Counted from the stretch's first letter, positions 3,393 through 26,630 are shown. The stretch is DNA of 64,000 nucleotides from an uncultured bacterium (GCA_949299395.1 CASGAB010000001.1:8365-72364); one strand, 5' to 3'. Translations and numbers: made by a program. The notes: generated by a model from the letters alone, not told the origin.

Positions 3393-3419
3393 TTATAAAC
3401 GTAAATATTATACACTAAT

Positions 3420-4379: not shown

Positions 4380-4381
4380 TT

Positions 4382-5314: not shown

Positions 5315-5318
5315 TTTT

Positions 5319-7183: not shown

Positions 7184-7673
7184 AAATTTTTATTCCATTT
7201 TTTAATATTTCATTTAGAATATCATAATCTTTTAAACAATCTTTAAAATCTAGTAAATCTACCCTTTTATGAAGTCCCACTCTAAAAGCTTCGATTAACC
7301 CGAAATATTCTAATCCATCCAGATTACCACTATAAGCTAAATCAACATCACTTCCTTCTTTTTGATAACCTTTCGCATAGCTTCCAAATAGATATACACA
7401 TTGAATTTTTCCTTTAAACTCTTTACTCTCACAAATTTTGGTAACGGTTTCTTTGATAAAATCCAAAGTTAATATTCCCTTTTCTTCATTAACTTCGTAT
7501 TTTTCCTTTAATAACTCTAAAAATTTAATTCTTTTTAGATTATTCCCATATTGTTCATCATTTTCATAACGAACATATGTTCTTAAAGGAATAGATAAAA
7601 AATCAGCTACTTCTTTTTGCGATAAATTAAGATTTTCTCTAGTTTTTTTAAGATTATTAAATTCAAATTCCAT
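7176..7673 (-). CDS. mntA: MntA-like minimal nucleotidyltransferase fused to an N-terminal XRE HTH domain; antitoxin partner of HepT
   Basis: N-terminus is an HTH_3 ('LSQKEVADFLSIPLRTYVRYEN'). C-terminus is a nucleotidyltransferase with 'VYLFGSYAKGYQKEGSDVDLAY' (GS...DxD). Its stop overlaps the hepT start. Confidence 0.65.
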   Translation of the reverse strand: MEFEFNNLKKTRENLNLSQKEVADFLSIPLRTYVRYENDEQYGNNLKRIKFLELLKEKYEVNEEKGILTLDFIKETVTKICESKEFKGKIQCVYLFGSYAKGYQKEGSDVDLAYSGNLDGLEYFGLIEAFRVGLHKRVDLLDFKDCLKDYDILNEILKNGIKIYG

Positions 7674-9336: not shown

Positions 9337-9390
9337 ATTTTTAATTTATCCCATTATTATGCATATTTTATCGTAGTTAGCCTTTATAGT

Positions 9391-9422
9391 CAAAAAAGAG
9401 TATGGCTCTTCACCATACTCTC
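9391..9422 (-). terminator. Intrinsic terminator after the Big_2/OB lipoprotein gene
   Basis: Stem AGAGTATGG/CCATACTCT with a 7-nt loop. On the minus strand it is followed by a TTTTTTG run. It lies 33 nt downstream of the 9455 stop. Confidence 0.5.
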
Positions 9423-9454
9423 CTTTGTTTGTTTGTTACTATCTATTAGATAGA

Positions 9455-11641
9455 TTAAGCTTTTCTAACGTTATCAATAACTAATTGGACTGTTCCGTTA
9501 TAGTCACTTCTAACACATTCGAAGGTAATCTTATCACCTGGCTTAAGATCTTTAGTAACTTCGTTTGTTAAGAAGTCTTTTGGATTTCCCATTGAATATT
9601 TCCAACTATCATTATAGTTGAATGAAATAGCAGTTGAAGCTGTTGCACCGTAAGCAAAGACTTCTCCATCAATAGATTCATCTTTTAAGTAAAGATTACC
9701 ATATTGATCAGGTTCTTCACCTTTAAATCTTGAAATTTCAGCAGTAACTTCATAGACATATTGTGAAGTCATACCATCAACAGGTCCTTTGATAACATCA
9801 GCTAATGTAGCTTTTGTAGCTGTTGATCTTTCATCGTTAAGTGAAGTTAAAACACCTTGAATTTCTTTTGTTTCTTTATAGTCAGCTCTAATAGCAACCA
9901 TTGTGACAATATCACCAACTTTAATACCTTTAGTTAATGGGTTATCTAATGCATTTTTAGGATTTTCAAATACATATTCTCCTGTAGCTGCATCAAATGT
10001 TAAAGCATCGTATTCAGCAGTAATACCGTAAACTAAAATTTCTTTTGATGGATCGTTTTCATCTTCAAGAATGAGATTACCATATTTAGTAACATCAGAA
10101 TCATCACCATATTGACCTAAAGCTTTAACTTTACCTCTAACAACATAAGCTTGTGTTGTGTTATTTTGAGCTTCTAAGATTTCTGAAACGCTTGCTTTAA
10201 CATAAGCTGGCTCACCTTGTCTTTCACTACAGTCTAATGTGACAACACCGATTGCACCGCTTTCTGTAGTAACACTGATTGTAACAGCACCTTCAGAAAT
10301 ACCTGTAACGACACCATTTTGATCGACAGTAGCAACTGATGTATCTGATGAACTCCATGTGAATACTGGATTTTCTTCGCCTTCAACTGTAGCTTTTAAT
10401 GGTAATGTAGAACCAACAAATAAATTACCTGTATATGTAATAGTTGCAGCTTTTGCTTCAACGTATGGTTCGTTAACGACTTCACAGCCTTCTGTAGAAA
10501 CAAACATTAATGCACTTTCACCACTAACAGCTATCATATCAGTATTTCCTGTTCCTGGATCAAGATTGTATGTTTTTCTTTGTGATTGCATACCAGTGAA
10601 GTTAATTGTTTTTTCGCCGTTTGAATCTAAAGCTTCTTTAAACATATCATAAAGGTCTAATTTGCCTTGTTGATCGTGGTTATATCTATCAGCGTAAACA
10701 TAGACTTCAGAACCTTTATATAAAACTTTTGCCTCTAAGAAGTCATCTTCTGTAACTTTTCCGTTATAGCTATTATCGTAAAGATTAACTTCTAAGACTT
10801 TAGCACCACTAATTGTTGATAATGAAGCGTATGTAGCTGGAGACATAAAGCCTGGGTGATTTAATTCAGAAACAGTAGGTTTTTCTACACCTTCAACATC
10901 TTTTCCACTTAAAATTGTGATAACAGCTTTACTACCAGTAATTTGTCTTGTGCTGTTGTATGGTGATGACTCACCAGAAACTTCAATACAATCACCAACT
11001 TTTAATCCGTTTGGAACGTTTTTCTTTGGAATATCATAAATCATAAAGCCGTAATTTCCAGCTTGAACAAGAATTCCATACCAGTTATCTGGGTCTGTAT
11101 CTGGGATAAATGATGTAACATAGCCTTGAACAGCACAAGTAACACCTTTGCCTGGCATATCTTTAATAGGAACGATATTTTTATTACTATTAATATCAAC
11201 ATTAAATTTTAATGATGCAGTAGCATTATTCAATTTTGCTGTACCTGTGATAGTTGTTGATTTAACTGTACCAAATTCACCCCAAACTGGGTTTAATTGT
11301 AAATATGATGAACCATTTGCTTCAACAGTTTCACTTGTGAATAATGTTGAATCAAAATCCCAATCAACAACAACATCAAATGTATTGCCGCTATCTGTTA
11401 AATAGCTGTAATTTGTTTGAGCAATAATGTAGTGAGCTGCCTTTTGTTCAATATTATTTTTAAGACCATATGATTCATCTCTAATAGGAGCTTTGACACT
11501 ATTTGTTAAAACTGCAGCAGAAGAGATAACAGCTTTACAGATTTCTTCATCAGTCATTGTTTCGTTAGTAGCTGGAGCACAAGCACTAACAAGTGCTGTA
11601 GCACTTAATGCAAAAGCGATTAATAATTTAGTTTTTTTCAT
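9455..11641 (-). CDS. Surface lipoprotein with a Big_2 Ig-like domain and three repeated OB-fold-like modules, a putative nucleic-acid-binding accessory protein
   Basis: Lipobox 'LVSACAP'. Big_2-like 'TWSSSDTSVATVDQNGVVTGISEGAVTISVTTESG'. Three repeats of the pattern '...V.G.V....YGN(L/Y).L.DE.....(I/V).VYG'. The same OB-like module occurs at the C-terminus of the adjacent nuclease. Confidence 0.5.
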   Translation of the reverse strand: MKKTKLLIAFALSATALVSACAPATNETMTDEEICKAVISSAAVLTNSVKAPIRDESYGLKNNIEQKAAHYIIAQTNYSYLTDSGNTFDVVVDWDFDSTLFTSETVEANGSSYLQLNPVWGEFGTVKSTTITGTAKLNNATASLKFNVDINSNKNIVPIKDMPGKGVTCAVQGYVTSFIPDTDPDNWYGILVQAGNYGFMIYDIPKKNVPNGLKVGDCIEVSGESSPYNSTRQITGSKAVITILSGKDVEGVEKPTVSELNHPGFMSPATYASLSTISGAKVLEVNLYDNSYNGKVTEDDFLEAKVLYKGSEVYVYADRYNHDQQGKLDLYDMFKEALDSNGEKTINFTGMQSQRKTYNLDPGTGNTDMIAVSGESALMFVSTEGCEVVNEPYVEAKAATITYTGNLFVGSTLPLKATVEGEENPVFTWSSSDTSVATVDQNGVVTGISEGAVTISVTTESGAIGVVTLDCSERQGEPAYVKASVSEILEAQNNTTQAYVVRGKVKALGQYGDDSDVTKYGNLILEDENDPSKEILVYGITAEYDALTFDAATGEYVFENPKNALDNPLTKGIKVGDIVTMVAIRADYKETKEIQGVLTSLNDERSTATKATLADVIKGPVDGMTSQYVYEVTAEISRFKGEEPDQYGNLYLKDESIDGEVFAYGATASTAISFNYNDSWKYSMGNPKDFLTNEVTKDLKPGDKITFECVRSDYNGTVQLVIDNVRKA

Positions 11642-11660
11642 ATTATTTTTAATTTCCTCC

Positions 11661-13070
11661 CTAATTAATATGTTCGCTTACATAGTTTTTATATTCGGTT
11701 GCTTTGAACGAAGGGAATTCAACTTGATATTCACCGTCTGCGTCTTCATTATATTGGAAGACTCCAAGCATAACCTTAACGTCGTAACTCTTACCTCTTT
11801 CAAAAACAGATGCAATTGTACTCAAACTGCTAAAGAAAGTGTGAGATTCAAAACGTATATTTAATTTAATATTGTTACAAGTTGCATGAACAGTGAAAAC
11901 ATTATTTACAACATCTTTTTCTGACTGATAAATATAGTCTTCACTATCTTCAATATCAATGGTTGTAGATATGAAGTTTCCAGCATATGGATCATAGGAA
12001 GATGTTGAAGTAATAGTTTTTGGATCCATATAAACTGGATCAACATTATAGGTATAACCTAAAGCTTCAGCTTCTTCTTTTGATGAGGCTAAAATTTCAA
12101 AAGGATAATGGTCATCACGAATACGAACGTCAGTTAATTGGAAATTACCATAATATTTTGTGATTTTTGCATAGAATCTAACGATATCACCAACTTTTGC
12201 GCCTGTATTTTTATATAAAGTAAATACAAAAATTGAAGCAGGAACAATGTCTTCATCGCTAGGATTTACGTCTCTAATATATAAATCACTTCCGCTAACA
12301 CCAATAACTTGTCCGGTAATTCTTAATTGTTTACCACTACTTCCTGTTGAATCATTAACTCCTAAAGTGTCGAAATTTGCTTTCGCATTAGAAATTGTTG
12401 TTTCAACTACTTCTCCACTTGAATCAAAATCACAATCTTTTTCACCATTAACTCTTCTACCTTCAGCTGCTTTTTGAGCTTCTTGGAAAGCTTCAAAATA
12501 ACCATCTAAAATGGAAGAATTTTGATTTAAATAGTTACGTGAATAGCCTTGTTCAACGATTTCTAAATTTAATAATCTAAAATCATCGCCTTCTTCAGGT
12601 TGATACCAAACAAAGCCCATATATCTTCCACCACTAGAATCATATTTTTCAAACATATCTAAATCGTTTAAAACAACGATTCTATTTGCGGTAGTAAGTT
12701 TTGATTTTGTAAAGTGAGAAGCTTTGATACCCCGTTCTTGGATAGCTCCTGTTGATTCAGGAGTATCAATAGCTTCATATCTAAATCTAAATCTTCTAGC
12801 GGTATTATCATCACTTGCAGGATAGAAATTTGATGTGTCTCCATCTGTATTTGAAGCGAGTTTAACTTCCATGATTGCTAAGCCGCTAGTAACATTTAAG
12901 AAATTATCGCTTGGAATACTAGCTTCATTAGCAAACTTAAAAGCATCTGTAACGGGAGTTGCATATTCTTCTGTTGACCCACAAACATCTTGTTTTTCTC
13001 CACACGAAGAAACTGCAAGGGTTGTAAATAAACCTAATACTAAGTATCTAAATAATTTCTTAAATTTCAT
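11661..13070 (-). CDS. Secreted/surface lipoprotein nuclease of the staphylococcal-nuclease (thermonuclease) family with a C-terminal OB-fold-like module
   Basis: Lipobox 'AVSSCGE'. SNase core 'GDTSNFYPASDDNTARRFRFRYEAIDTPES...KASHFTKSKL' (compare 'GDT...R(L)IGIDTPE'). C-terminal 'LRITGQVIGVSGSDLYIRDV...YYGNFQLTD'. Confidence 0.7.
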   Translation of the reverse strand: MKFKKLFRYLVLGLFTTLAVSSCGEKQDVCGSTEEYATPVTDAFKFANEASIPSDNFLNVTSGLAIMEVKLASNTDGDTSNFYPASDDNTARRFRFRYEAIDTPESTGAIQERGIKASHFTKSKLTTANRIVVLNDLDMFEKYDSSGGRYMGFVWYQPEEGDDFRLLNLEIVEQGYSRNYLNQNSSILDGYFEAFQEAQKAAEGRRVNGEKDCDFDSSGEVVETTISNAKANFDTLGVNDSTGSSGKQLRITGQVIGVSGSDLYIRDVNPSDEDIVPASIFVFTLYKNTGAKVGDIVRFYAKITKYYGNFQLTDVRIRDDHYPFEILASSKEEAEALGYTYNVDPVYMDPKTITSTSSYDPYAGNFISTTIDIEDSEDYIYQSEKDVVNNVFTVHATCNNIKLNIRFESHTFFSSLSTIASVFERGKSYDVKVMLGVFQYNEDADGEYQVEFPSFKATEYKNYVSEHIN

Positions 13071-13107: not shown

Positions 13108-14646
13108 TTAAGCAGGAATATTATTTGGATTTAATTTATAGAATTCATCAAGAATTGCTTCCCATGTAGCATCGCTAGCAGCTTCTTCTGAAGAAACGTC
13201 TCTACATCTAGCCATGATACCACCAACGTTGTTTCTGATTGATGATGAACCAACGAAACCTGGATCAACGTATTGTGTCCAACCAACATTACCTTGATAA
13301 ACATCGAAGTTAATTAAGACTGCGTCTCTCATGGTTTTTGATGTACCTTTTAATGTTGTATCGTTTAAATAATCTTGATAAACAGTTGATTCATATGCAT
13401 CTGTTGTAACTGGGATATAGCCAGTATTTTTAGCAAATGTAGCATTTGTTGTTGGATCATATGTTAATGTTTTTAAAAGTTCAAATGTTGCAGCTCTATT
13501 TTCTTCATCTGCGTTTCTGAACATAACTAAGTTAGTACCTTGAGAAATAACATATTTATTTTCAGGTTTATCAGCATTGAATGGAACTGGATTAACTTCT
13601 ACTTCGAAAGCGTCACCTGCTGGAACACAGTTACTAACACCTGCTGAAGAACCGATTGTAAAGACTGTTTTATAAGCCTTGAATGGCGTAGATGTATAAC
13701 TTGTTTCACCAAATGAAGCTGGAATAGCCATGATGCCTTCATTGAATAATCTGTTGAAGAATTTTAACATTTCAACAGTTTCAGCACTCTTATAGTGCAT
13801 ATAACCTTGTGTTTTACCGTTTGGTAAAGATTCAACTGTTGTATATGTTCCACCCCATTGTCTAACCATTGTAATAAAGAAGTTAGCTTGTGAGTCATAT
13901 GAACAGACATAGAAATCATTTTCACCAACTTTTGTTAAATCAATAGCAACTTCAACACCTGCATCTGCAGCAGCTTTTGAGTCGTTATAAACGACACCAT
14001 CAGTACCAATAACTTTGTTGAAAGCACCTTTTTCTTTTAAAACTTTTCTTGTTGCGAGACCAAATTTTTCAACTTCTTGCCATGTTGTAGGAACACCAGT
14101 GATTTTATCATCACCTTCTGCTGTTTCTGTCATTTTAATTAAGACTTCAACGAAAGTTTGGTTTGTAGTCATAACTTCAGTTGATTTATTGAATGGTAAA
14201 CCCATGACTCTATCTGGAACGATTTCAAGGTTTTCTTGTAAATAGTTGTCATAGAATTTGTCTAAATCCATACCATCAGCTTCGATAGTTGAAGTTAAAT
14301 CAAATAAAATACCTGATTCACTATATTGAGCCATGTGGTCTGGATAAGCAACAGCTAATTGTGGGTAAGTTCTTGTTGAAACTGAACCAACGATTGCAGC
14401 AAGTAAGTTATCATAACCACCTTGTCCAGTATGAACAATGTCATAACCTTCATGATTTGCTTCATAATCGGTTAAGATGTTTTCTAATTGGGTGGTCATT
14501 GATTCGCCAAAACCAGTCCAAACATTAATTGTAGTAGCACCACTTGCTTCTTGACCACAGCCGGTTAAGCCGAGTAAGCCAACAAATGGGACAGCAACTA
14601 ACAACTTAATTTTTCTGTTCATTAATAATTTCCTCCCTTTGAACAA
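13108..14646 (-). CDS. ABC transporter substrate-binding lipoprotein (family 1/CUT1), paralog of the 1872..3392 product
   Basis: Lipobox 'LTGCGQE'. Paralog-level similarity to the other binding protein ('PQLAVAYPDH' versus 'PSLAVCYPDY'). Confidence 0.8.
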   Translation of the reverse strand: MFKGRKLLMNRKIKLLVAVPFVGLLGLTGCGQEASGATTINVWTGFGESMTTQLENILTDYEANHEGYDIVHTGQGGYDNLLAAIVGSVSTRTYPQLAVAYPDHMAQYSESGILFDLTSTIEADGMDLDKFYDNYLQENLEIVPDRVMGLPFNKSTEVMTTNQTFVEVLIKMTETAEGDDKITGVPTTWQEVEKFGLATRKVLKEKGAFNKVIGTDGVVYNDSKAAADAGVEVAIDLTKVGENDFYVCSYDSQANFFITMVRQWGGTYTTVESLPNGKTQGYMHYKSAETVEMLKFFNRLFNEGIMAIPASFGETSYTSTPFKAYKTVFTIGSSAGVSNCVPAGDAFEVEVNPVPFNADKPENKYVISQGTNLVMFRNADEENRAATFELLKTLTYDPTTNATFAKNTGYIPVTTDAYESTVYQDYLNDTTLKGTSKTMRDAVLINFDVYQGNVGWTQYVDPGFVGSSSIRNNVGGIMARCRDVSSEEAASDATWEAILDEFYKLNPNNIPA

Positions 14647-14679
14647 ACTTTTAATCTATCTAATATGCGTAACGCATTA

Positions 14680-15729
14680 TTAGCCCTTAATACCACTTCT
14701 TGAGACACCTCTCATAATATACTTATGGAAGAATATAAAGAGGATAAAGAGTGGAAGTGTAACGACAACGGATCCAGCCATTTTACCTGGTTGGTTATCG
14801 CTAAATTCTGAAGAGAATGAAGCCATTAATCCGTTTGAAACTAATCTAATATCGTAATTATCTCCGAAGATAATGGAGTGTTGCATTCTGCCGTTAGCAA
14901 CAAGTTGAGGCCAAACGTATGCGTTCCATCCACCCATCAAGGAGAGAATGATAATAGTAACAATAGTTGGCATACCAATAGGAACCATAACTCTTAAAAG
15001 ATATTTCCAATCAGTATAACCATCGACTTTTGCAGCTAAATATAATTCATTTGGAATTTGTTGGAATGTTTGTCTTAAATAGAAAATATAGAAGACGCTA
15101 ACACCATGGACTAAAATTAAAGCTGCGAATGTATTTTCCCAACCGAATTCTTTAACTAAAGCATAGTTAGTAATAACCATCATTTCGCCAGGAATCATCA
15201 TGGTTGCTAAGATAATTAAGAATAATAAGTTTTTACCTTTGAAATTTAATCTAGCAAAAGCAAATGCTGCTAAAACTGATGTAATAACTGTAACAAGCAT
15301 TCCACCTGCCGAAGAAATAAATGTATTTAAGAAATAAATCCAGAAAGATGTTTTTTCTTGAACAATACCTAAATTATCAACATATGTAGGAGCGAAAACC
15401 GATACATAATTTTCCATTGTAAATGGAATTGGCAATAAGGTAATTGTGTTATTCGACTTATTCATTTCAAAAGTTTGTTGAGAAATAAATGAAGTTGAAA
15501 TCATGAATAAGAATGGTAAAAGAATGAAAATAGCAAAAACGATTAAAAAAGCATACATCAAAGATTGAGAAATAATTAATTTTGGTAAATATGATTTTCC
15601 AACGTGATAACCTTCACTATTAGCTTTACCTTTTCTTTCTAAACGATAATTTTCGCTTTCTGCGAGTTTTTGATTACCACTTTCTAAGTAGGCTTGTAAT
15701 TCTAATTCACTTTTAATAGCTTTTTTCAT
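14680..15729 (-). CDS. ABC sugar transporter permease (MalG/UgpE-like) with an N-terminal extension
   Basis: EAA region 'ELYLAAKVDGYTDWKYLLRVMVP'. It is a paralog of the 3420..4379 product. Confidence 0.8.
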   Translation of the reverse strand: MKKAIKSELELQAYLESGNQKLAESENYRLERKGKANSEGYHVGKSYLPKLIISQSLMYAFLIVFAIFILLPFLFMISTSFISQQTFEMNKSNNTITLLPIPFTMENYVSVFAPTYVDNLGIVQEKTSFWIYFLNTFISSAGGMLVTVITSVLAAFAFARLNFKGKNLLFLIILATMMIPGEMMVITNYALVKEFGWENTFAALILVHGVSVFYIFYLRQTFQQIPNELYLAAKVDGYTDWKYLLRVMVPIGMPTIVTIIILSLMGGWNAYVWPQLVANGRMQHSIIFGDNYDIRLVSNGLMASFSSEFSDNQPGKMAGSVVVTLPLFILFIFFHKYIMRGVSRSGIKG

Positions 15730-15743
15730 AAATTACTACCTCC

Positions 15744-16976
15744 TTAATAGTGGACTCTCTTCTTACTTACAGCAAATTGAACTGCGGTAATAAGAAGAAT
15801 GACACATAAAAGAACGATACTTCCTGCGGCTGCATAGCCAGGATTAAGTGGATTAATTTGTTTCATATCTCTATAAAGATAACCGACAACTGTAATCCAT
15901 TCGACACCTTGATATCCACCGAAGAAATAGTTGTTTTGTGAAATATAAATCGATCTAACATCGGTATACATTTTAAATGCACCAATGAATGATGTGATTG
16001 TGATATATAAAATTTGAGGAGAAAGGAGAGGGACTGTAATCTTTCTAAAGATTTTTCCACCTTTTGCTCCATCAATTCTAGCTGCATCGTAATATTGTTT
16101 ATCAATAGTTGATAAGCCAGAAAGGAAGACTAAAATCTTAAATGCCATTTGATTCCAAACTGAATAAGTAACAATAACTACTGCTTGTGCCCATCTTGGT
16201 GCACCTTCTGTGACCCATTGTTGATTTAAACCAAAGAGGGTATTAATTAAACCACCACCAACTGCACCATTTGTATAGCTTGAGAAGATAAGGTTAAAAA
16301 CCATACCTAAAGCGATAGTATTGGTAACATATGGAAGGAAGAAAACAGTTTGAAAAAATCCCTTTAAAAACTTAATTCTATGTATGAAATAAGCAATTAA
16401 AAGGGATACAAAAATTGTAAGTGGGACTTCTAAAATAACAAGTTCGAAAGTATTCCATAAACTCTTAATGAATAATGAGGTAGGAATAGTTTGACCAAAA
16501 AGTACGATAGAATAGCTAGTATTGCTAAATAAATAGGTGAAATTTCCAAAACCAAAAGTTGTTGGATAAGGAGCTTCAGTACAAACAATACCGCTTCCAC
16601 CAACAGAACTCATGTCTTCACAAATAACTGAGTTACCTTTAATGATGTTTGCAATAGAAAAAGATCCAGCACCATCAACCCAAGTAAAATCTTCAGTAAA
16701 TGCGATAACAAAGCTGTTAAAAATTGGATAAATCATGAATAAACAAATCAAAATAAAGGCTGGAATTAAAACCAAGAAAGCCAATAAATTTTGATTCATA
16801 TGGAATTTTCTTTTTTTGGTTTCTAAAGGACGATGAATGTCAAATTTACATGTTCCATCTTCATTGTAATAATAAGATTCTTCGTGTCCTCTATGTCTTA
16901 AACGAATAGAGATGTTTTCGAAAGTATCTTTACATCTTTGAAGGAACTTTTTTTCACTTTTCGCTTCGTTTTTCAT
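15744..16976 (-). CDS. ABC sugar transporter permease (MalF/UgpA-like) with an N-terminal cytoplasmic extension
   Basis: EAA region 'YYDAARIDGAKGGKIFRKITVPLL'. It is a paralog of the 4382..5314 product. Confidence 0.8.
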   Translation of the reverse strand: MKNEAKSEKKFLQRCKDTFENISIRLRHRGHEESYYYNEDGTCKFDIHRPLETKKRKFHMNQNLLAFLVLIPAFILICLFMIYPIFNSFVIAFTEDFTWVDGAGSFSIANIIKGNSVICEDMSSVGGSGIVCTEAPYPTTFGFGNFTYLFSNTSYSIVLFGQTIPTSLFIKSLWNTFELVILEVPLTIFVSLLIAYFIHRIKFLKGFFQTVFFLPYVTNTIALGMVFNLIFSSYTNGAVGGGLINTLFGLNQQWVTEGAPRWAQAVVIVTYSVWNQMAFKILVFLSGLSTIDKQYYDAARIDGAKGGKIFRKITVPLLSPQILYITITSFIGAFKMYTDVRSIYISQNNYFFGGYQGVEWITVVGYLYRDMKQINPLNPGYAAAGSIVLLCVILLITAVQFAVSKKRVHY

Positions 16977-16996
16977 ATTAAATTACCTTTTAAGAA

Positions 16997-18781
16997 TTAG
17001 AAAATTCTTTCTCCAGTTTCTTCAAATACGTAAATTCTCTTAGCTGAGAAATTAAGATATTCATTTCCTTCACATTCTTTTGCGAGTTCAGAAGAAATAA
17101 TAATTTTAACGTGTCCTTCTTCTACTCCAACGACATCTCCAACAACGGAAATATCTCTACCAATATGTTCAATATTGAAGACTTTAACTTGGATAGGACC
17201 GTTTGGATCTAAAGCAAAATGTTCTGCTCTAATACCAACTTTAACAGTTCTTGTTGGGTTTAATCTTGATTCTAATGAAGCAATAATTCTTTGAACTCTA
17301 TCTTTTGCTTCATCTGTTTGAACACCATTTGAATTTCTTAAGATTTCAATTTGGTGATCTTTAATAGCTTTTGTTCCTTCCCAATCACTTGAAGCATATA
17401 ATTCTTCAATTTGATGAGCATAAGGAATAACTTCAAGAGAAACTTTAGCTTTTTTAGCAAGTTTTTTAACAGTTTTGAATCCAGCTGGTGATGATGCGTT
17501 TTCAACAGCGTCTAATTCATGTAAAACTGCTTCAACTAATGCTTTTTCTTCATCATTATGAGTTTCTACTCTATTAACAAGCATTTTTCCTCTTGCAATA
17601 GCTACTTTATCTTTAACTTCGATAACTTTCTTATTTAATTCTTCTTCACTTGCGTTAAGTAAGACACTAACTTCATTATTAAAGACATCAATAACAGATT
17701 GATCATCATATTTAGTTAAATAGCTCTTAGCATCTTTTAAAGCTTTTCTAACTTCTTTTCTATCTGTAGTAGGTAATACAACATTTGTATAGCAATCAAA
17801 TGTTGGTAAAGATTCTAATAATTCTTTTTCTTTAGCTTTTTGTTCTTTTTTAGAAATAAAATCGTTTGTACCAGAAATAATGTTTGTACCACAAGCATTA
17901 CAATATTTACCATTATGTGAAACAACATTACCACAGTTTGGACAAATAACTTCTTCAATGTGAACTCTATTTAGTGCTTCATCATAGAAAACTTCTTTTT
18001 CAGCAACAAATAATTTACCGTTTTCAACTCTTCCATCAAAAACGTTAATTGCAGGAGTTCCTAAGAACTTAGCAACAAAGAGGTTTGCTGGTTCTTCATA
18101 AACTTTTTGAGGTTCATCTTTTTGTTGAACAATACCATCTTTCATAACAACAATAAAGTCAGAAATTGACATAGCTTCTTCTTGGTCGTGTGTAACAAAG
18201 ATAGTTGTAATTCCTGTTTCTTTTTGAATTCTTTTAATTTCTTCTCTAGTTTGAAGTCTTAATCTAGCATCTAAGTTAGATAAAGGTTCATCTAAAAGAA
18301 GAACTCTAGGTCTTTTTGCTAAAGCTCTAGCGATAGCAACACGTTGTTGTTGACCACCAGAAAGTTCTTTTGGTTTTCTATCTAATAATTTTTCAATATT
18401 AACAATTTTTGCGTTTTCTAAAGCGATTGCGCATTTTTCATCAAATGTGAGCTTTGGAACAACGTTATCTAAAGGGAACATAATGTTTTGTCTAACGTTG
18501 AAATGAGGATAAAGTGCATAGTTTTGGAAAACTAATCCGATTCCACGATTTTCTGGTGGAACATTTGTAACATCTTCGTTTCCAAAGAAGACTTTTCCTT
18601 CAGTGACGGTATGAATACCGGCAATCATATAAAGGGTTGTAGATTTACCACAACCAGAAGGACCTAAAAGACCACAAAGTTTTCCATCTGGGATGTCAAA
18701 AGTCATATTATTAACAGCGACTGTCTTAGCACCTTTCTTTCCTTCAAAAGTTTTAACGAGGTTTTGAATCTTTACTTCCAT
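16997..18781 (-). CDS. ABC transporter ATP-binding protein (MalK/UgpC-like) with a ~270-aa insertion, including a CxxC...CxxC zinc ribbon, inside the C-terminal regulatory domain
   Basis: Walker A 'GPSGCGKST', signature 'LSGGQQQRVAIARAL', Walker B 'LLLDEPLSNLD'. The regulatory domain is interrupted by 'CPNCGNVVSHNGKYCNACG' plus about 250 residues before it resumes 'VKVGIRAEHFAL...'. Confidence 0.85.
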   Translation of the reverse strand: MEVKIQNLVKTFEGKKGAKTVAVNNMTFDIPDGKLCGLLGPSGCGKSTTLYMIAGIHTVTEGKVFFGNEDVTNVPPENRGIGLVFQNYALYPHFNVRQNIMFPLDNVVPKLTFDEKCAIALENAKIVNIEKLLDRKPKELSGGQQQRVAIARALAKRPRVLLLDEPLSNLDARLRLQTREEIKRIQKETGITTIFVTHDQEEAMSISDFIVVMKDGIVQQKDEPQKVYEEPANLFVAKFLGTPAINVFDGRVENGKLFVAEKEVFYDEALNRVHIEEVICPNCGNVVSHNGKYCNACGTNIISGTNDFISKKEQKAKEKELLESLPTFDCYTNVVLPTTDRKEVRKALKDAKSYLTKYDDQSVIDVFNNEVSVLLNASEEELNKKVIEVKDKVAIARGKMLVNRVETHNDEEKALVEAVLHELDAVENASSPAGFKTVKKLAKKAKVSLEVIPYAHQIEELYASSDWEGTKAIKDHQIEILRNSNGVQTDEAKDRVQRIIASLESRLNPTRTVKVGIRAEHFALDPNGPIQVKVFNIEHIGRDISVVGDVVGVEEGHVKIIISSELAKECEGNEYLNFSAKRIYVFEETGERIF

Positions 18782-18917
18782 ACTAAGTTTCCTTTTAATT
18801 TATGAACTATATTTTAGCATTTTAAATCACCAAAAAAAACGATAAAAAAGCATTGTTTTAGATAAGGGAAAAATTAAAAAAAACGCTCGACTCTTTTTTT
18901 ATAAAAAAGGTACGTTT

Positions 18918-20126
18918 TTAATCATTTTTTCCTTCATTATTATCGATATTTTCTAAATTTTGATTAATAACAATATTTTCATCTTTTTTAAAAGAATTTG
19001 TTCTTTCTTCAATTTGCGCCATTAATTTTTCTTCAGTTTCACGATTTAAGAACCAAACACTATTCTTTGTGTCGATTACTTTTGTTAAAGAAATTAAATC
19101 ACTTAAAGAAGTATGATTCTTAGTAAAAATTATTAATGCAAAATCAATTAAATAGAATAATCCTAAAGAAAAATAACCTGCAAAAGCTTCAGCACTAATA
19201 AATAAATATTTAGTTAATATCTGTAATTTAGATACTTGATAATCTTTATTATTCACTAATGCTAAATGCATCATTCTATTAGATATAGTTTGACCATTTT
19301 TTGATAATAACGGTATTATCAAAAAATAGATTATTAGAGCTATTCCTAAAGATACATATAAAGAGTATCTACCAACTCTTTCTAATTCAGTATAAATAGA
19401 ATAATAATTATCTGTATCTCTTAAATAAAAACATGCTTGATGATAACTTCCTGGATAAGATTCAGTATCTGCAAAAATTCTAATATATGCTCTTATATAA
19501 TTTTGATTTTCTGGTGAAGAAAATGGTTTATTTGGGTTTTTTTCATAGATAACACTGCTATAAGTAACTTTATCTAAAATACCAATATTAGAAGAAACAA
19601 CTTCTCCTTTTTCATCAAATGTTAATGGATCACTATATTTATCACCATTAATGATATAAAAAGCTTCAAAATTAGGATATTCTTCGTTATCAATGTTACA
19701 AACATTTTTATAAAACCAAGCATTAAGCTCTTCTTTTGTTGGATCTTTTTCAAAAATAATGCCATAAGAATCAATTTCATCTAAATAAACATAATAAAAG
19801 TTATAAAGCATTTTTAAAAAGACCATGTGAGAGTCTTCATAAGTAAAATAACCATTTTCATCAGTTAGTTTTTCTGCCGAAATATAATTAACTTCACTTA
19901 AAGGTGGTTGACCTAGCTTTGTATCATCAAAAAATAATCCACTATCAACTTGAATTTGTTTAATTTCATTTAATTTTTGAGGAATACGAAAACCATAATC
20001 GATATATCCTTCAACAGTTGGAAGATAAGTAATTGCAACTAAAAAAAGGATAAATAATAAATCTAATAAAAATCCAAAAGCTCTTTTTCCTAAAGAACCA
20101 AGATGAATATCACTAATCTTCTCCAT
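18918..20126 (-). CDS. RDD-family membrane protein with a large inserted soluble domain (paralog D of four)
   Basis: N-terminal 'GKRAFGFLLDLLFILFLV' matches the RDD signature (R...D) followed by a TM helix. A Y/D/E/N-rich domain of about 230 aa follows. C-terminal RDD core 'SKNGQTISNRMMHLALVNNKDY' and TM helices. The start overlaps the upstream paralog by 14 nt. Confidence 0.55.
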   Translation of the reverse strand: MEKISDIHLGSLGKRAFGFLLDLLFILFLVAITYLPTVEGYIDYGFRIPQKLNEIKQIQVDSGLFFDDTKLGQPPLSEVNYISAEKLTDENGYFTYEDSHMVFLKMLYNFYYVYLDEIDSYGIIFEKDPTKEELNAWFYKNVCNIDNEEYPNFEAFYIINGDKYSDPLTFDEKGEVVSSNIGILDKVTYSSVIYEKNPNKPFSSPENQNYIRAYIRIFADTESYPGSYHQACFYLRDTDNYYSIYTELERVGRYSLYVSLGIALIIYFLIIPLLSKNGQTISNRMMHLALVNNKDYQVSKLQILTKYLFISAEAFAGYFSLGLFYLIDFALIIFTKNHTSLSDLISLTKVIDTKNSVWFLNRETEEKLMAQIEERTNSFKKDENIVINQNLENIDNNEGKND

Positions 20127-21108
20127 TTTCTTGATCTGCCTCTAATTCTTCTAAATTTTCATAGATTGTTGATTCTTTCGTGTTACAAACTCTAGAAAAA
20201 GAAATTAAATCTAAAATCGATGCATTTTCTCTATTCATTAAAGTTGCTAACCAGTTAAAAAGGAAGAAAGCTCCATAAATTGGTGCAAGAACAAAGATAT
20301 TATCTTCAATCAAAATGATACAAAGTAAAATAATTGTTGGAATATTTCTAATTAAAAAGAAATATCTTTTTTGATAAATTCCATCTTTTGAAACTAAACC
20401 AACCTTTGTTAAGAATCTTCCTAAAGTAAATCCATATTTATTAGTAAGTGGAGGAATTGCAAAAACTAAAACATAAGGGATGATTGCAGAACAAAAAATA
20501 CGATAAACTCCCTTATTTATAACGCTTTCTCTAGCTATCGAATAAAAATTATCTTTATATAAATCAGAATAAATTTCTCGGTAATGGCGAGAATAAAAAA
20601 CCATTAAATTATTTTTTGCTTCAATTGTTAAAGTTCCGTTTTCACGATCATTCTCGGTATAATTCTCTTCTTTTAAAATACCTAATTTATTTTCATCGAT
20701 ATTATTATTTTCATCGTATTGATATTCAAAATAGGTGTAATCGGTGCCTAATTCTAAGATTTTTGTATTATATTCTTTAATTGTATAAGGTTTTCTATCT
20801 CCACTATTTTCTTTATAAAATTCACTACCAAAATATTTATCGGTTAAATAATATGTTTCAACTACTTCTTTATAATCTTCATAATCACTTGAATGTAATT
20901 GTTGATAATATCCATTTTTATCTTTAACTAATAACCCACTTTCTACTTGAGCAGTAGCAATTAAATTATCTTCGGCTTGAGAATCAAAAGTATATCTAAA
21001 AACAAAAGATGATAAAACAAAAAACAAGACTCCAAAAAGGAAGAAATCAATTAAGACTCCTAAGAAACGGAATGACATTTTTGAATAAGCTACTTTTTTG
21101 TTGATCAT
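20113..21108 (-). CDS. RDD-family membrane protein with an inserted soluble domain (paralog C)
   Basis: 'FRFLGVLIDFFLFGVLFF' and a C-terminal canonical RDD core 'KYGFTLGRFLTKVGLVSKDGIYQKRYFFLIRNI'. A conserved post-TM motif 'VESGLL' is shared with the other paralogs. Confidence 0.6.
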   Translation of the reverse strand: MINKKVAYSKMSFRFLGVLIDFFLFGVLFFVLSSFVFRYTFDSQAEDNLIATAQVESGLLVKDKNGYYQQLHSSDYEDYKEVVETYYLTDKYFGSEFYKENSGDRKPYTIKEYNTKILELGTDYTYFEYQYDENNNIDENKLGILKEENYTENDRENGTLTIEAKNNLMVFYSRHYREIYSDLYKDNFYSIARESVINKGVYRIFCSAIIPYVLVFAIPPLTNKYGFTLGRFLTKVGLVSKDGIYQKRYFFLIRNIPTIILLCIILIEDNIFVLAPIYGAFFLFNWLATLMNRENASILDLISFSRVCNTKESTIYENLEELEADQENGED

Positions 21109-21152
21109 AACTTTTAAACGAATATTACTTTAACATAAAATTATTAATTTTA

Positions 21153-22109
21153 TTAATTACTATTTTTCTTCTTTTCAAAATAATATTCTTCATAATCTAA
21201 ATAAAACTTATTACTTTCATTCATCAAAGAATAAGTTTTAGACATATATTCATTAAAATTCTGTTTGTTTTTAGATATAAACATCATTCCAACACTAAAA
21301 ATAAACGGAATTCCAATAGTAAAAATAGATAGAATAACTTCAATTAAAAAGAACCATAAAAACTTAATAAAAAAATCTTTTTTAGTTAAACATAATCCTT
21401 TTTCATTTAAAGACCCAAATCTAAATATTAGTTTTCCTAAACTTTTATTTCCTCTTTTAAAAATAAGTGGAAATAAAAGATAGAAAACTAATATTGAAAC
21501 TATAAATGAGATTAAAACTATTAGAAGTTGAACAATAAAAATATTAATACTTTCTTTTAAATAAATAGAAGATTGAGTTAAATAAGCTAATGCATTGTTA
21601 TCAATTAAATAAGTATAAAATTTAATAAAATCACCATCTAAAACGTCTTCTTTTTCAATATAAATGTTATTTTCTTTATCAAAAACAAAATAATCTAAAC
21701 CATATTCTTCAATAAATGAATTTAAAATATCTCTTCCTTCGTTTTCTTTTTCGCTATATGAATTAAGTTCGATATAAAAATAATTAGCTCTCTCACTTAA
21801 TTCTTTCTTTTTAACTTCATTAGTTAAGTCTTTATTATCTAAGGAATAATATGAAGAAATCGCAATTAAATCACTATTTTGTTTAACAAAAAGTTTAGAT
21901 TCTAAGCAAACATTTTCAATATTATTAATCGAAGTTTTATAAAAACTGGTTTCTTGATAAACAAGAAGAGATAATAAAACTAAGATAATTGTTAAAAGAA
22001 TTGTCGAAAAAAGATCGATTAATCCAGCAAAAAATCTCTTATATAAAGGGACTTCCTGATAACTTAATTCAATAGTATTGTTATTTTTTTCCAAAACTTC
22101 TTGATTCAT
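21153..22109 (-). CDS. RDD-family membrane protein with an inserted soluble domain (paralog B)
   Basis: 'KRFFAGLIDLFSTILLTIIL' is a classic RDD N-terminus. 'KRGNKSLGKLIFRFGSLNEKG' is the RDD core. Multiple TM helices. Confidence 0.6.
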   Translation of the reverse strand: MNQEVLEKNNNTIELSYQEVPLYKRFFAGLIDLFSTILLTIILVLLSLLVYQETSFYKTSINNIENVCLESKLFVKQNSDLIAISSYYSLDNKDLTNEVKKKELSERANYFYIELNSYSEKENEGRDILNSFIEEYGLDYFVFDKENNIYIEKEDVLDGDFIKFYTYLIDNNALAYLTQSSIYLKESINIFIVQLLIVLISFIVSILVFYLLFPLIFKRGNKSLGKLIFRFGSLNEKGLCLTKKDFFIKFLWFFLIEVILSIFTIGIPFIFSVGMMFISKNKQNFNEYMSKTYSLMNESNKFYLDYEEYYFEKKKNSN

Positions 22110-22124
22110 AGAAATAATTATAAA

Positions 22125-23324
22125 TTATTTTTTTTCTTTCTCGGTTTCTTTGTCTTCGATAATAAAATCTTCACCATTTTTAATTTCTTCATTAGAAACA
22201 AGATTTAAAAGGGATAATCTTTTTTTAGTAAATGGAATTGTAACCATATTAAATAATACGAGAATTATCGAGAAAATTGATACATTCAATATGCTAAATA
22301 AGCCAATAAATAGCATCTGACTATATGAAGGGAAGAATAAAAGAGTAAAAATTAGAGAGACGAAAAGACCTGATAAAAATAACAAAGAAAATTTAGCTAA
22401 ATAATTTAAAAAAGTAAGATTTTTGTTAGTTCTTCGATTATTTCCAACAATTTTAAACATTTTCATCATAAATGTTTGATCTTTTTTAAATATTAAAATA
22501 GGTAAACCAAAATATATTAAGAAAGAAAAAACATAAGAAATAATCATTTCAATAATTAAATAATTGTAATAATCATAATTTAATTGTTCAAAAGCTACAA
22601 AATTAGGGAAATAATTTTTATCATTTGTCTCAAAATCTTTGATAAGTGAATAATAAAAATTAAGATAATCATCATAATATTCATTATAAAGATCTGTATA
22701 ATCGGTCGAATAATCTTCTTCAAAAACATATTTTGCTAAATCTAAAGCAACTTCTTCTTTTAAAACAAATCTTCCTGTTTCGAAGTAATTTTCCTTATAA
22801 TAATCAGCTAAAAATTGATTAAAAGAATTAACAATTCTCTCATTGCTTAAACTTTCATTATCATCTAAAAGGTTGTCTAAGCGATATTCAAAAACATAAT
22901 AATTGATATTTTCTTCGCTATATTCATTAAAAACTTCATAATTTTCATGAATTGAGCCTTTGAAATCATAATTTATATCAGCTAAATAGGTTTTTAAAGA
23001 TCTTCTAACTTCTTTATAAACAACACCGTTTAAACTTAAGAGTTCTTTATCTTCGTTCATCTCTAAAAGACCAGAATCTACCCCGTTTTGATATAATTCA
23101 CTTCTTTTTTCGTTAATTTTAATAATTTTATCATTTACAACAGATACTAAATTACCTAAAGGATAGGCGATTACTCCATTAATAAGTGAAAAAAATATAA
23201 AAAATAATGCTAAATCTAATAAAAAGACTAAAAATCTTTTACCTAATTTAGTTTTTGAATTTTTTGAATAATCTATATCTTTGTTATTAATATTTTTTTT
23301 AGATATTGAAAAAATATTTTTCAT
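22125..23324 (-). CDS. RDD-family membrane protein with an inserted soluble domain (paralog A)
   Basis: 'GKRFLVFLLDLALFFIFFSL', 'VDSGLL', and 3-4 C-terminal TM helices. It starts 3 nt after the stop of the SIR2-like gene. Confidence 0.55.
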   Translation of the reverse strand: MKNIFSISKKNINNKDIDYSKNSKTKLGKRFLVFLLDLALFFIFFSLINGVIAYPLGNLVSVVNDKIIKINEKRSELYQNGVDSGLLEMNEDKELLSLNGVVYKEVRRSLKTYLADINYDFKGSIHENYEVFNEYSEENINYYVFEYRLDNLLDDNESLSNERIVNSFNQFLADYYKENYFETGRFVLKEEVALDLAKYVFEEDYSTDYTDLYNEYYDDYLNFYYSLIKDFETNDKNYFPNFVAFEQLNYDYYNYLIIEMIISYVFSFLIYFGLPILIFKKDQTFMMKMFKIVGNNRRTNKNLTFLNYLAKFSLLFLSGLFVSLIFTLLFFPSYSQMLFIGLFSILNVSIFSIILVLFNMVTIPFTKKRLSLLNLVSNEEIKNGEDFIIEDKETEKEKK

Positions 23325-23327
23325 TTT

Positions 23328-24626
23328 TTAATCAAGTTTATTAAGCCGCTCACCAATTTCTTTATAATCATCAATCCAAATAGTAATTAAATCATAACTA
23401 AAGAAATAATTTGTAACGTCTCTAAAAGTATTTGAATCAAAATTATCTTCTTTTTTCATAAAAATGAAATTAAATTTTAAGAAATTAGATGCTAATTCTA
23501 ATAATCTTTTCATATTTGGATCGGTTAAAGAAATTCCAATAAAAATATTCGTTTTAAAGATGAAATCGTGTAATTGTTTAGCGATATTCCAAGAATATGG
23601 ATTATTATAAAGATAATAATATTCACTTTCATTAAATATTAATGAATCTGTAAACTTTTCTTCATTATATTTATCAAAAGGAAGTAAACCATGAACATGA
23701 TAAATATCTACTTTTGCATCTTTAATTAAAAAAGCATTATCATCATAAACCGTGTTATATAAAATACCTCTTTTTTTAAGGATATATTCTAAATTTGTAT
23801 CGTAATTATATGTAATTACAGTAGTTTTATTATGTTTATCAATAAAATTAGTTAATTCATATAAGGTTGAAGAAGGATCTGTAAAATCAACATAATCTTT
23901 AAATAAATATAATTCTTTATTTAATTCTTTATAAGTATCAAATCCATTAGTTTTTAAAATTTTTGAAGATACAAAAAGTTCATTACCAACATAATGTCTA
24001 ATTTCTTCAATTCTTTCTTCATTTCCTTCATAAAATCTTTCATTTAGAGCCGAAATTAAATTTTTCCAATCTTTAGCACCGTAATTTACATTCATTCCTG
24101 CTCCTAAAATTAAGGAAGTATCAAGTTTATAGGTAAAAAGTTTAAGTAAATAAAGAATAAAAGAATCTTCATTTTCTTCTTTTTTATCTAAATTTAATAA
24201 ATATAAAAGTTCATCTTTAAATATTGAACTACCTTCTTTTTTAAGAGTATATCTAATCTTTTTACCTTCAATAAAACCAATTGCTAAAAAATTATTTTCA
24301 TCAAAATAAATATTTAAAGATGATAAAGGAATATATGGGTCAAAAGTTTTTAAGTTCTTAATTTTAAAGAAATTAACATTACCCATAACATCAATTTCTT
24401 CTAAATTAACTTTAAAAATCGAATTATAAATATGAACGACATATTTATGAATATGATCATGAGAAGAATTAACAACAACTTTAAAATTACATTTTGGATC
24501 AAAATGGAATCCAAAAGAACGAAAAACGATGTTTTTATAGCTAACTCCATTTAAATAATATAAATAAAGTAAAATTAATAAACATTTCTTATTAAATATA
24601 TAGTTCTCGCGATCTTTTTTTCTCAT
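23328..24626 (-). CDS. SIR2_2-family (defence-type sirtuin-like) domain protein with a ~165-aa N-terminal domain of unknown function
   Basis: The C-terminal ~270 aa carry the SIR2_2 hallmark blocks in order: 'LILGAGMNVNYGAKDWKNLISAL' (GAG...W..L), 'TTVITYNYDTNLEYIL' (TNYD.LLE), 'IYHVHGLL...LIFNESEYY' (HxHG...DY), 'IFIGISLTDPNMKRLLE' (FIGYSL.D). It is the first gene of a 5-gene minus-strand operon. Confidence 0.55.
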   Translation of the reverse strand: MRKKDRENYIFNKKCLLILLYLYYLNGVSYKNIVFRSFGFHFDPKCNFKVVVNSSHDHIHKYVVHIYNSIFKVNLEEIDVMGNVNFFKIKNLKTFDPYIPLSSLNIYFDENNFLAIGFIEGKKIRYTLKKEGSSIFKDELLYLLNLDKKEENEDSFILYLLKLFTYKLDTSLILGAGMNVNYGAKDWKNLISALNERFYEGNEERIEEIRHYVGNELFVSSKILKTNGFDTYKELNKELYLFKDYVDFTDPSSTLYELTNFIDKHNKTTVITYNYDTNLEYILKKRGILYNTVYDDNAFLIKDAKVDIYHVHGLLPFDKYNEEKFTDSLIFNESEYYYLYNNPYSWNIAKQLHDFIFKTNIFIGISLTDPNMKRLLELASNFLKFNFIFMKKEDNFDSNTFRDVTNYFFSYDLITIWIDDYKEIGERLNKLD

Positions 24627-25700: not shown

Positions 25701-26630
25701 CTACCTTTTAAGTTGACTAACTACTTCTGTTTCACCAATATAACAATTTGAATAATGATTATCACTTATTTCATATAAAGCTGGAACATAGCGATAATAT
25801 GTATTTTTTAATTCAGTTTCTTTATTTTTAATATTTTCTTCAATAAATCTTTTAAAATCTTTTGATGATGTTGCTTCTTCTGCAAGTTTAAATTTAGCTC
25901 TATTTTCTTTACCTTCTTCACTTAAAGAAGATTTCATATCAAATACAAATATAGGAACTTCTTTATTTTTTTCACTTAAAAGATAAGAAATAATTTCACC
26001 CTTAATCTTTAAACAGTATGGGCAAGTTTCAAAATAGATATAAACATAATATTTTTTATAATCTTGAAGATAAAAATTATCTAAATTATCAAGTAAAGCA
26101 CCTGGAATATCTTTATAACTTCTTGAATCTAAAGTTGTTTCAAGTAAATATTTAGCTGGTTCAATTCCTCCAGCAATAAAATCATTTAAAACACCTTGAT
26201 TAATAATATATAAAGATGGAACTACGTTAATTATCGTATCTTTTAAGGTTGAAACTTTTTTACTTAACATCTCATTTCTTGTTTCATCAACACTTAAAAC
26301 TCGATCATCATAAACTGCACCTTCTTCTTTTAAACGAACGGTATTATAAATATAGATTTTAAAATTCTTGTTTCCTTTTTTATATTCATTTAAATGATTT
26401 AAAACTACATTTTTATTTTCATTACAAGCATCACAATCAACTCGATATAAATAAATTCCATAGACTTCTTCTTTTTGAAGATAAAAATCATTAATTGACT
26501 CTAAATAACAATCTTTAAAAGAAGGGTAATCTAAAGAAGGATCTAACTCAAAATGAGGTAAAGATCCACAACTTGTAATAAAAATAGTTAAAAATAATAT
26601 TAAAGCTTTAAAAAACTTTTTCATTCTCAA
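25701..26630 (-). CDS. Lipoprotein with two thioredoxin-fold-like CxxC modules
   Basis: Lipobox 'FITSCGS'. CxxC motifs 'CDAC' and 'CPYC' each sit in a ~130-aa repeat. It is convergent with the esterase gene with a 1-nt spacer. Confidence 0.45.
   Translation of the reverse strand: MRMKKFFKALILFLTIFITSCGSLPHFELDPSLDYPSFKDCYLESINDFYLQKEEVYGIYLYRVDCDACNENKNVVLNHLNEYKKGNKNFKIYIYNTVRLKEEGAVYDDRVLSVDETRNEMLSKKVSTLKDTIINVVPSLYIINQGVLNDFIAGGIEPAKYLLETTLDSRSYKDIPGALLDNLDNFYLQDYKKYYVYIYFETCPYCLKIKGEIISYLLSEKNKEVPIFVFDMKSSLSEEGKENRAKFKLAEEATSSKDFKRFIEENIKNKETELKNTYYRYVPALYEISDNHYSNCYIGETEVVSQLKR

Follow-up and report, generated by a model that had tools for sequence, protein, structure and literature searches.

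A lineage-fixed SIR2_2 protein encoded beside paired RDD membrane proteins and binding-protein-dependent importers in uncultured gut Bacilli

The window analyzed here is a 64,000-nt stretch of DNA from an uncultured bacterium (GCA_949299395.1, CASGAB010000001.1:8365-72364), and our subject is a run of five genes within it, at positions 18918-24626, that encodes a SIR2_2-domain protein and four membrane proteins of the RDD family. All five open reading frames (ORFs) lie on the minus strand, in the order SIR2 (432 aa; 23328-24626), RDD_A (399 aa; 22125-23324), RDD_B (318 aa; 21153-22109), RDD_C (331 aa; 20113-21108) and RDD_D (402 aa; 18918-20126). RDD_A starts 3 nt after the SIR2 stop codon, the next two gaps measure 15 nt and 44 nt, and RDD_C and RDD_D overlap by 14 nt. 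A preliminary description of the region, made from the sequence alone, had reported the same five genes and spacings, and the ORF coordinates agree with it. The G+C content of the five-gene region (21-25%) lies inside the range found across the window (21-37%).

The assignment of the first protein to SIR2_2, likewise made in that description, was borne out by profile, motif and structure comparisons. The protein matched Pfam SIR2_2 (PF13289) over residues 269-394 with E=4e-13 and 50.1 bits (cut-off 24.5), and G175, G177, N274, D276, H310, H312 and D369 were invariant in 70 aligned sequences, including those of distant relatives. An alignment-based AlphaFold2 model reached a pLDDT (predicted local distance difference test) of 88, and its residues ~170-432, a SIR2_2 domain of the ThsA/DSR2 type with the catalytic Asn and His intact, gave their best Foldseek superpositions with ThsA, DSR2 and KomC (E ~1e-11 to 1e-9), with TM-scores of 0.65-0.74 against SIR2-only chains. 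The top 50 matches among solved structures were all ThsA, DSR2 or KomC, and no classical deacylase sirtuin was among them. A sequence search of the PDB with the SIR2 family profile returned a single marginal ThsA match, and the matches to the PADLOC ThsA/SIR2 models were weak, that to ThsA being limited to the SIR2 part. We infer that the NAD-cleaving chemistry has been kept.

The N-terminal domain (residues 1-168; nt 24123-24626, minus strand), which the preliminary description had been unable to identify, gave no match in Pfam, NCBIfam or PHROG and no significant Foldseek match in the PDB; its predicted fold is weakly restriction-endonuclease-like. NCBIfam and PHROGs returned nothing useful for any of the five proteins, and no match to STALD, SLOG or TIR was found in the SIR2 protein or in the products of neighbouring genes.

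The four downstream genes had been described as RDD family members forming one set of tandem, diversifying paralogues. As to the family, the Pfam RDD profile (PF06271; cut-off 24.1 bits) was passed by RDD_B (35.6 bits, E=1.3e-8), RDD_C (28.8 bits, E=1.7e-6) and RDD_D (47 bits, E=4e-12); RDD_A remained below it (18.2 bits, N-terminus only) but was recovered by profile-profile comparison, since a profile of its orthologues aligned with that of the RDD_B orthologues over 295 columns in hhalign (probability 99.7%, E=1.9e-25). All four proteins share a plan consisting of an N-terminal K/R-R-F..L.D motif and a first transmembrane helix (TM1), an ectodomain of ~125-210 aa and at least two more transmembrane helices, with R30 and D37 invariant across the four. 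Proteins of the RDD_B type additionally conserve the motifs PLxFxRGxxTLG and KxxQxFxDY. The four paralogues are strongly diverged, with 19-30% identity over the parts that can be aligned.

The arrangement as one family did not hold. When 146 RDD proteins were clustered, RDD_A grouped with RDDs that occupy the first position after SIR2 (35 of the 41 members; "R1" type) and RDD_B with those in the second position (51 of 66; "R2" type), whereas RDD_C and RDD_D grouped solely with copies that are not SIR2-adjacent. The four genes are two pairs of different origin, each with its own ATP-binding cassette (ABC) importer: RDD_A and RDD_B are the first and second membrane partners of SIR2, and RDD_C and RDD_D are linked to the adjacent importer, ABC1. 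Only 20 homologues of RDD_D were found, and this protein thus appears to evolve fast. A recent tandem duplication, or a phase-variable surface family, was ruled out as the source of the four genes: their divergence is ancient, and their orthologues are specific to position.

Whether SIR2 homologues lie beside RDD genes in other genomes had been set beforehand as the test of the proposed pairing. We predicted ORFs for 80+ loci and matched them against the window proteins and an RDD hidden Markov model built from the loci; linkage was counted over the 55 loci, taken at species level, that had 5 kb or more of sequence on each side. In 44 of these 55 loci, SIR2 had an RDD gene no more than 500 bp away, and in 39 it had a MalK-like ATPase gene within 5 kb; the proposed pairing thus passed the test. 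The genes followed the same-strand order SIR2 > RDD > RDD in 51 loci, and in 48 of the 51 the distance from the SIR2 stop codon to the RDD start was at most 20 nt or the genes overlapped. Independent gene calls likewise gave gaps of 1-4 nt or overlaps between SIR2 and RDD. The linkage has outlasted at least five kinds of rearrangement, namely displacement of the importer to the upstream side, divergent orientation, inversion of the RDD pair, insertion of the ATPase gene between SIR2 and the pair, and duplication of units. The gene upstream of SIR2, on the other side, belonged to 27 families, the largest being tuf (13 of 66 loci, 20%), and these upstream neighbours included an esterase and ribosomal-protein operons; metabolic genes were also present in the flanks.

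Two of the upstream genes deserve a separate remark. In the 13 species with tuf, which encodes EF-Tu, the gene directly precedes SIR2 on the same strand (e.g. L002-L005, 8716-9900), and read-through from this very highly expressed gene into the predicted NADase gene is possible. In 17 loci, several of them with a SIR2 gene that has no RDD neighbour, SIR2 is preceded by a gene for a thioredoxin-like lipoprotein with a TTG start codon, which is also present in the window (25701-26630, minus strand). The copy in locus L098 (4864-5814) is separated from SIR2 by 3 nt, and the lipoprotein may be a member of the module in part of the lineage.

The importer genes that follow SIR2-RDD-RDD in ~60 species were best hits not of ABC1, the importer adjacent to the RDD genes in the window, but of a second one, ABC2 (1872-6785, minus strand), which in other species is the usual direct follower of SIR2-R1-R2. 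Their identity to the ABC2 proteins was 40-63% for the ATPase and about 42-63% for the permeases. ABC2 comprises an ATPase (5319-6785), two permeases (4382-5314 and 3420-4379) and a binding protein (1872-3392). ABC1 (13108-18781, minus strand) likewise comprises a 594-aa ATPase (16997-18781), permeases (15744-16976 and 14680-15729) and a binding lipoprotein (13108-14646). Both have the composition of CUT1-type importers: a MalK/UgpC-like ATPase (ABC_tran and OB_MalK in ABC1), two BPD_transp_1 permeases and an SBP_bac_1/8 binding protein (SBP_bac_8 in ABC1). Their scores against the NCBIfam UgpC/MalK-like equivalog families were all below the cut-offs, and both binding proteins weakly matched the mycoplasma lipo_P68 family of NCBIfam.

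The ATPases vary in build. In that of ABC1, the nucleotide-binding domain is separated from the MalK OB domain by an insert of ~330 aa that contains a double zinc ribbon; in that of ABC2, ~75 aa within the nucleotide-binding domain are unmatched, so that the profiles align in two parts, residues 3-155 and residues 233-485. Across species the importer ATPase ranges from 408 to 658 aa.

Downstream of ABC1 lie genes for the degradation of extracellular nucleic acids (7897-13070, minus strand), which encode an SNase-domain protein (11661-13070; Pfam SNase), a Big_2 protein (9455-11641; Pfam Big_2) and a 5'-nucleotidase (7897-9336; Pfam Metallophos and 5_nucleotid_C, NCBIfam nucleotidase families). 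A cassette with the same gene order, RDD-RDD-ABC1-type importer-SNase-Big_2, was found without SIR2 in two other loci (L086 and L097, which also provide the contexts for RDD_D), and an RDD pair with an importer and no SIR2 in a third (L087). The SNase gene gave only five tblastn matches across the loci, most of which stop short of that position, and the count is therefore a poor guide to how widespread the nuclease link is. From the orthology of ABC2, the clustering of the RDD proteins and the occurrence of SIR2-free cassettes elsewhere, we conclude that the window reads SIR2-RDD_A-RDD_B, then an inserted RDD_C-RDD_D-ABC1-SNase-Big_2-5'-nucleotidase segment with a toxin-antitoxin remnant, then ABC2. 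The inserted segment is an independent cassette, which probably scavenges nucleic-acid breakdown products.

What looks like an MNT/HEPN toxin-antitoxin pair is situated between the 5'-nucleotidase gene and ABC2 (6833-7673, minus strand). It consists of a helix-turn-helix and Pol-beta-type nucleotidyltransferase gene (7176-7673) followed by a 67-aa ORF that contains RNRLVHAY, a HEPN-like R-x4-H motif, and that looks like a truncated HEPN gene. RDD_D and the ABC1 ATPase gene are 136 nt apart, and the interval (18782-18917) holds T-runs and a TGcTAAAAT element resembling an extended -10 box, so that ABC1 may have its own promoter there. A scan for promoter and terminator consensus sequences gave fewer promoter-like matches than shuffled sequence and was uninformative at 21-25% G+C, and an Rfam search of the whole window returned zero matches.

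RDD pairs also occur in a setting of another kind. In two loci (L088 and L089; pair at 10001-12041) they lie inside a starch-utilisation locus without SIR2, between a MalK-type importer and GH13 amylases/pullulanase; these loci also encode CBM proteins. The absence of SIR2 at L086, L097, L088 and L089 applies to the fetched 10 kb on each side, and at L087 to a 7.7-kb contig. The starch loci suggest that importers which scavenge polymers have RDD pairs as a general accessory. We conclude that in these bacteria they are general companions of binding-protein importers rather than SIR2-specific partners, and they would act as two-subunit membrane accessory components of such importers, with very fast-diverging ectodomains.

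A word-indexed search for SIR2 relatives gave 243 clusters, of which the best 120 were all full-length with 57-100% identity. In an exhaustive search with clustering at 50% identity, the whole SIR2 family collapsed into one representative, and the next full-length relatives outside it were only 31-35% identical to it in the SIR2 domain. When GTDB species genomes were scanned, the family was located in at least 95 species; all those listed were uncultured gut Bacilli/"Mollicutes" known as metagenome-assembled genomes, including Candidatus Enterosoma, Onthovivens, Enteromonas and Clostridium sp. CAG:288. Enterosoma has been placed in family CAG-288 of the order RFN20 (PMC8035907). The SIR2 family is confined to RFN20-type gut Bacilli, some families of which are predicted to be wall-less. 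No relative was found in IMG/VR, and phage and plasmid collections yielded nothing closer than distant matches to the SIR2 domain.

Among the 41 species in which the gene set was complete, the median pairwise identity was 62% for SIR2, 53% for the ABC ATPase, 57% and 54% for the permeases, 20% for the first RDD and 25.5% for the second. SIR2 is the most constrained and slowest-evolving gene of the set, while the surface-exposed RDD proteins diverge very fast. In 40 of 49 species, the nearest neighbour by SIR2 was also one of the three nearest by permease.

These properties do not agree with a mobile defence system; the preliminary description had called the locus defence-like and placed it among accessory genes. 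PADLOC recognised no known defence system, only generic domain matches, in ~15 kb around the locus; integrases, transposases and known defence genes were not found nearby, and the upstream side is occupied by tuf, an esterase or ribosomal-protein operons.

The nearest relatives outside the SIR2 family form an uncharacterised, single-gene family of Firmicutes (P0129-P0137, P0293, P0309 and others). Its members are similar in length to the SIR2 protein (~440-470 aa) and have an N-terminal domain of their own of ~170 aa. The family is diverse and patchily distributed over Firmicutes (Abiotrophia, Granulicatella, Lachnospiraceae, Emergencia), and its genes are lone genes in defence islands. One lies beside RloB/AAA_21 and an nSTAND NTPase (L094), and another in an integrase-flanked island (L096, 258-12542) together with an OLD-family ATPase and UvrD helicase (Gabija-like) and with ThsA (SIR2+STALD) and TIR (Thoeris); one Abiotrophia copy is surrounded by ordinary genes.

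The alignment consensus of the sister N-domain shows a D...E-I-K pattern, which we read as a putative PD-(D/E)xK nuclease signature; a Pfam scan of ten sister proteins revealed no nuclease domain. Where the sister N-domain has this D...E-x-K-like pattern, that of SIR2 carries FDP...HxHKY, and profile-profile comparison of the two N-domains gave no signal. Whereas the sister family is patchy and resides in defence islands, SIR2 of RFN20 forms one tight cluster beside core genes. On account of this contrast, the RFN20 gene would derive from a defence-type ancestor and have been fixed afterwards: a member of a single-gene "N-domain + SIR2" family of defence islands would have become a vertically inherited core gene.

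We compared the locus with the characterised SIR2 systems. ThsA of Thoeris, DSR2 and KomC of Kongming share with the SIR2 protein the catalytic fold, the GAG motif, the TNYD-type Asn and the His of the HxHG motif. Unlike them, the SIR2 protein has no SLOG/STALD domain and no C-terminal sensor of the DSR2 type. Its gene has no TIR, HerA, pAgo or KomA/B partner; its partners are RDD proteins and an ABC importer. In particular, neither a SLOG/STALD fusion nor an adjacent TIR protein (ThsB), both characteristic of Thoeris, was present at the locus. DSR-type proteins have a large C-terminal sensor of ~1000 aa; the whole SIR2 protein has 432 aa, and its neighbours in ~60 species are RDD and ABC-importer genes, an arrangement that matches none of DSR1/DSR2, SIR2-HerA, SIR2-APAZ/pAgo and Kongming. 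Nor does the locus resemble a defence island or mobile system: it lacks defence and mobile-element neighbours, and the family is one 50%-identity cluster in a single lineage. While defence NADases are patchy and mobile, SIR2 of RFN20 is vertically inherited and evolves slowly. Our literature search found no publication that pairs SIR2 with RDD, in agreement with the preliminary description, which knew of none.

Precedents are available for the RDD side of the locus. The RDD protein Mam1B works with an Mce importer, the lipid importer Mce1 (bioRxiv 10.1101/2025.03.26.645568), another report places the RDD protein SppI in an SppI-SppA protease complex of B. subtilis (PMC7568657), and a cytoplasm-facing intramembrane binding site has been predicted for RDD (PMC12419801). 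As with Mam1B and SppI, the RDD membrane domain is encoded here beside another membrane machine, and Mam1B offers the precedent of an ABC-type importer. By contrast with both, the RDD proteins described here are paired, have a 125-210-aa ectodomain after TM1 and accompany CUT1 binding-protein importers; moreover, one type of pair shares an operon with SIR2. Mycoplasma SNase-ABC operons (the MAG_5040, mhp379 and MPN133 loci), for which uptake of nucleic-acid precursors has been proposed (PMC3585158), resemble the ABC1 unit in having a surface SNase beside a UgpC/MalK-like importer and a large binding lipoprotein. They differ in gene order, and the study that proposed this role describes no RDD pair or SIR2 in them (PMC3585158).

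We tentatively favour, at somewhat below even chances, the interpretation that SIR2 is a defence-derived NADase that was fixed in the RFN20 lineage and coupled to an RDD-pair/importer complex. The SIR2-RDD_A-RDD_B triad is kept across RFN20-type gut Bacilli, normally running into a CUT1 importer (here ABC2, displaced to 1872-6785), and SIR2 would be a latent NAD+-cleaving enzyme gated, via its N-domain, by the complex of RDD_A, RDD_B and the importer. Considering the core-gene behaviour of SIR2 and its link to an importer, the trigger is somewhat more likely to be a state of the cell's physiology or envelope that is linked to import than a classical, mobile anti-phage trigger. A bolder reading, in which the three proteins form a transmembrane module whose RDD pair senses a surface event (for instance the docking of a phage, or distress of the envelope or the importer) and relays it to the cytoplasmic NADase, the whole being long fixed in the chromosome of an entire lineage, seems doubtful to us. 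The membrane-linked NAD+-depletion module of the preliminary description keeps its SIR2-RDD linkage, loses its setting among accessory genes and may still be right.

Several observations weigh against a coupled NADase. In 9 of the 55 species neither an RDD gene nor the ATPase gene is near SIR2, and the adjacent RDD pair is thus dispensable for SIR2. These solo genes retain all N-domain invariants. Co-transcription alone could be sufficient to explain the SIR2-RDD linkage. Pairwise identities of SIR2 were only modestly rank-correlated with those of the ABC2 genes (0.37-0.42), whereas the ABC genes reached 0.72-0.85 with one another; saturation or old exchanges inside the lineage could account for the low values. 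Finally, we know of no housekeeping role for the SIR2_2 clade, and every characterised close structural relative of the SIR2 protein known to us is an abortive-infection NADase.

The solo SIR2 genes neighbour either malQ/miaB or psuG/psuK and a ribosomal-protein operon. Downstream of them (L090 11325-13131; L013 11428-15525; L091 11408-15524) we observed psuG/psuK, which function in pseudouridine catabolism, or malQ, miaB and TnpB (IS605 OrfB).

The locus could instead encode a fixed, chromosomal form of abortive infection, a reading close to the main proposal of the preliminary description, in which the RDD_A and RDD_B ectodomains respond to adsorbing phage or to membrane injury by activating the SIR2 NADase, so that NAD+ is depleted. 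The SIR2 domain is nearest to ThsA, DSR2 and KomC and has its catalytic residues intact, the sister family resides in defence islands, the triad is tightly spaced, and the RDD proteins diverge ~3x faster than SIR2, as would be expected of a surface arms race. Yet the locus lies outside defence islands, in one lineage, and is missing from mobile-element collections, and SIR2 is its slowest-evolving gene, unlike typical defence genes. Furthermore, similar RDD pairs accompany importers with no SIR2 nearby, which argues that RDD is no dedicated phage sensor, and solo SIR2 genes occur. Altogether, we regard such a fixed abortive-infection system as rather unlikely.

The core-gene behaviour that speaks against abortive infection would be expected of a non-toxic, NAD-dependent housekeeping enzyme engaged in nutrient salvage or transport control, which could modify the importer, for instance by ADP-ribosylation, or act as a glycohydrolase in nucleotide or NAD salvage. 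The steady linkage to a CUT1 importer, the nuclease and 5'-nucleotidase genes at the same locus and the solo copies beside psuG/psuK and malQ, genes of nucleoside and maltodextrin catabolism, agree with such an enzyme, as does the import of precursors for nucleic acids proposed for the mycoplasma SNase-ABC operons (PMC3585158). Opposed to this are the structure matches, the top 50 of which comprise only ThsA, DSR2 and KomC and no classical deacylase sirtuin, and the importers themselves, whose NCBIfam matches, all below cut-off, assign them no substrate. Since, in addition, no such role is known to us for a protein of the SIR2_2 clade, we consider a housekeeping enzyme improbable.

It could also be that SIR2 is a stand-alone protein that heads an inherited operon by chance, its adjacency to the RDD genes being historical synteny. 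The sister gene works as a lone gene, solo SIR2 genes with all their N-domain invariants are found in 9 of 55 species, and the correlation of pairwise identities with the ABC genes is modest. Chance adjacency is nonetheless hard to reconcile with a downstream neighbour that 80% of species retain, as against an upstream one drawn from 27 families, with gaps of at most 20 nt or overlaps in 48 of 51 loci, and with a triad that shifts as one unit relative to the importer; we think the absence of any functional coupling quite improbable.

A mobile anti-phage system of the typical kind, housed in an accessory island, or else a family for surface variation under the control of a sirtuin, both in line with the preliminary description and suggested by weak PADLOC ThsA/SIR2 matches and the novel domain pairing, is largely refuted by distribution and context and retains hardly any probability, since integrases, transposases and known defence genes were not found nearby, viral and plasmid copies are lacking, the family is a single tight cluster in one lineage whose SIR2 evolves more slowly than the transporter genes, and the paralogues, at 19-30% identity, are ancient rather than recently diversified and have no repeat or switch machinery.

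To our knowledge, nearly all described NADases of the SIR2_2 type are effectors of abortive infection that are mobile and turn over fast; here, one is a core-like gene of an uncultured human- and animal-gut lineage, in a nutrient-importer operon. The lineage-fixed partnership of a SIR2_2 NADase with RDD proteins and an ABC importer is previously undescribed. If the three proteins did form a transmembrane module, they would include the first RDD proteins with a sensor function and constitute an undescribed kind of membrane-sensing SIR2 system, assembled out of accessory proteins of an importer and a defence gene that had been domesticated. For the RDD family, which is poorly understood, the loci provide a concrete context open to testing: in these bacteria its genes come in pairs as accessories of binding-protein importers, close to genes for nucleases and amylases. 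Should the coupling prove functional, it would mean either that a defence NADase can be put to physiological use by domestication or that a defence system can be fixed and tied to the feeding apparatus of the cell.

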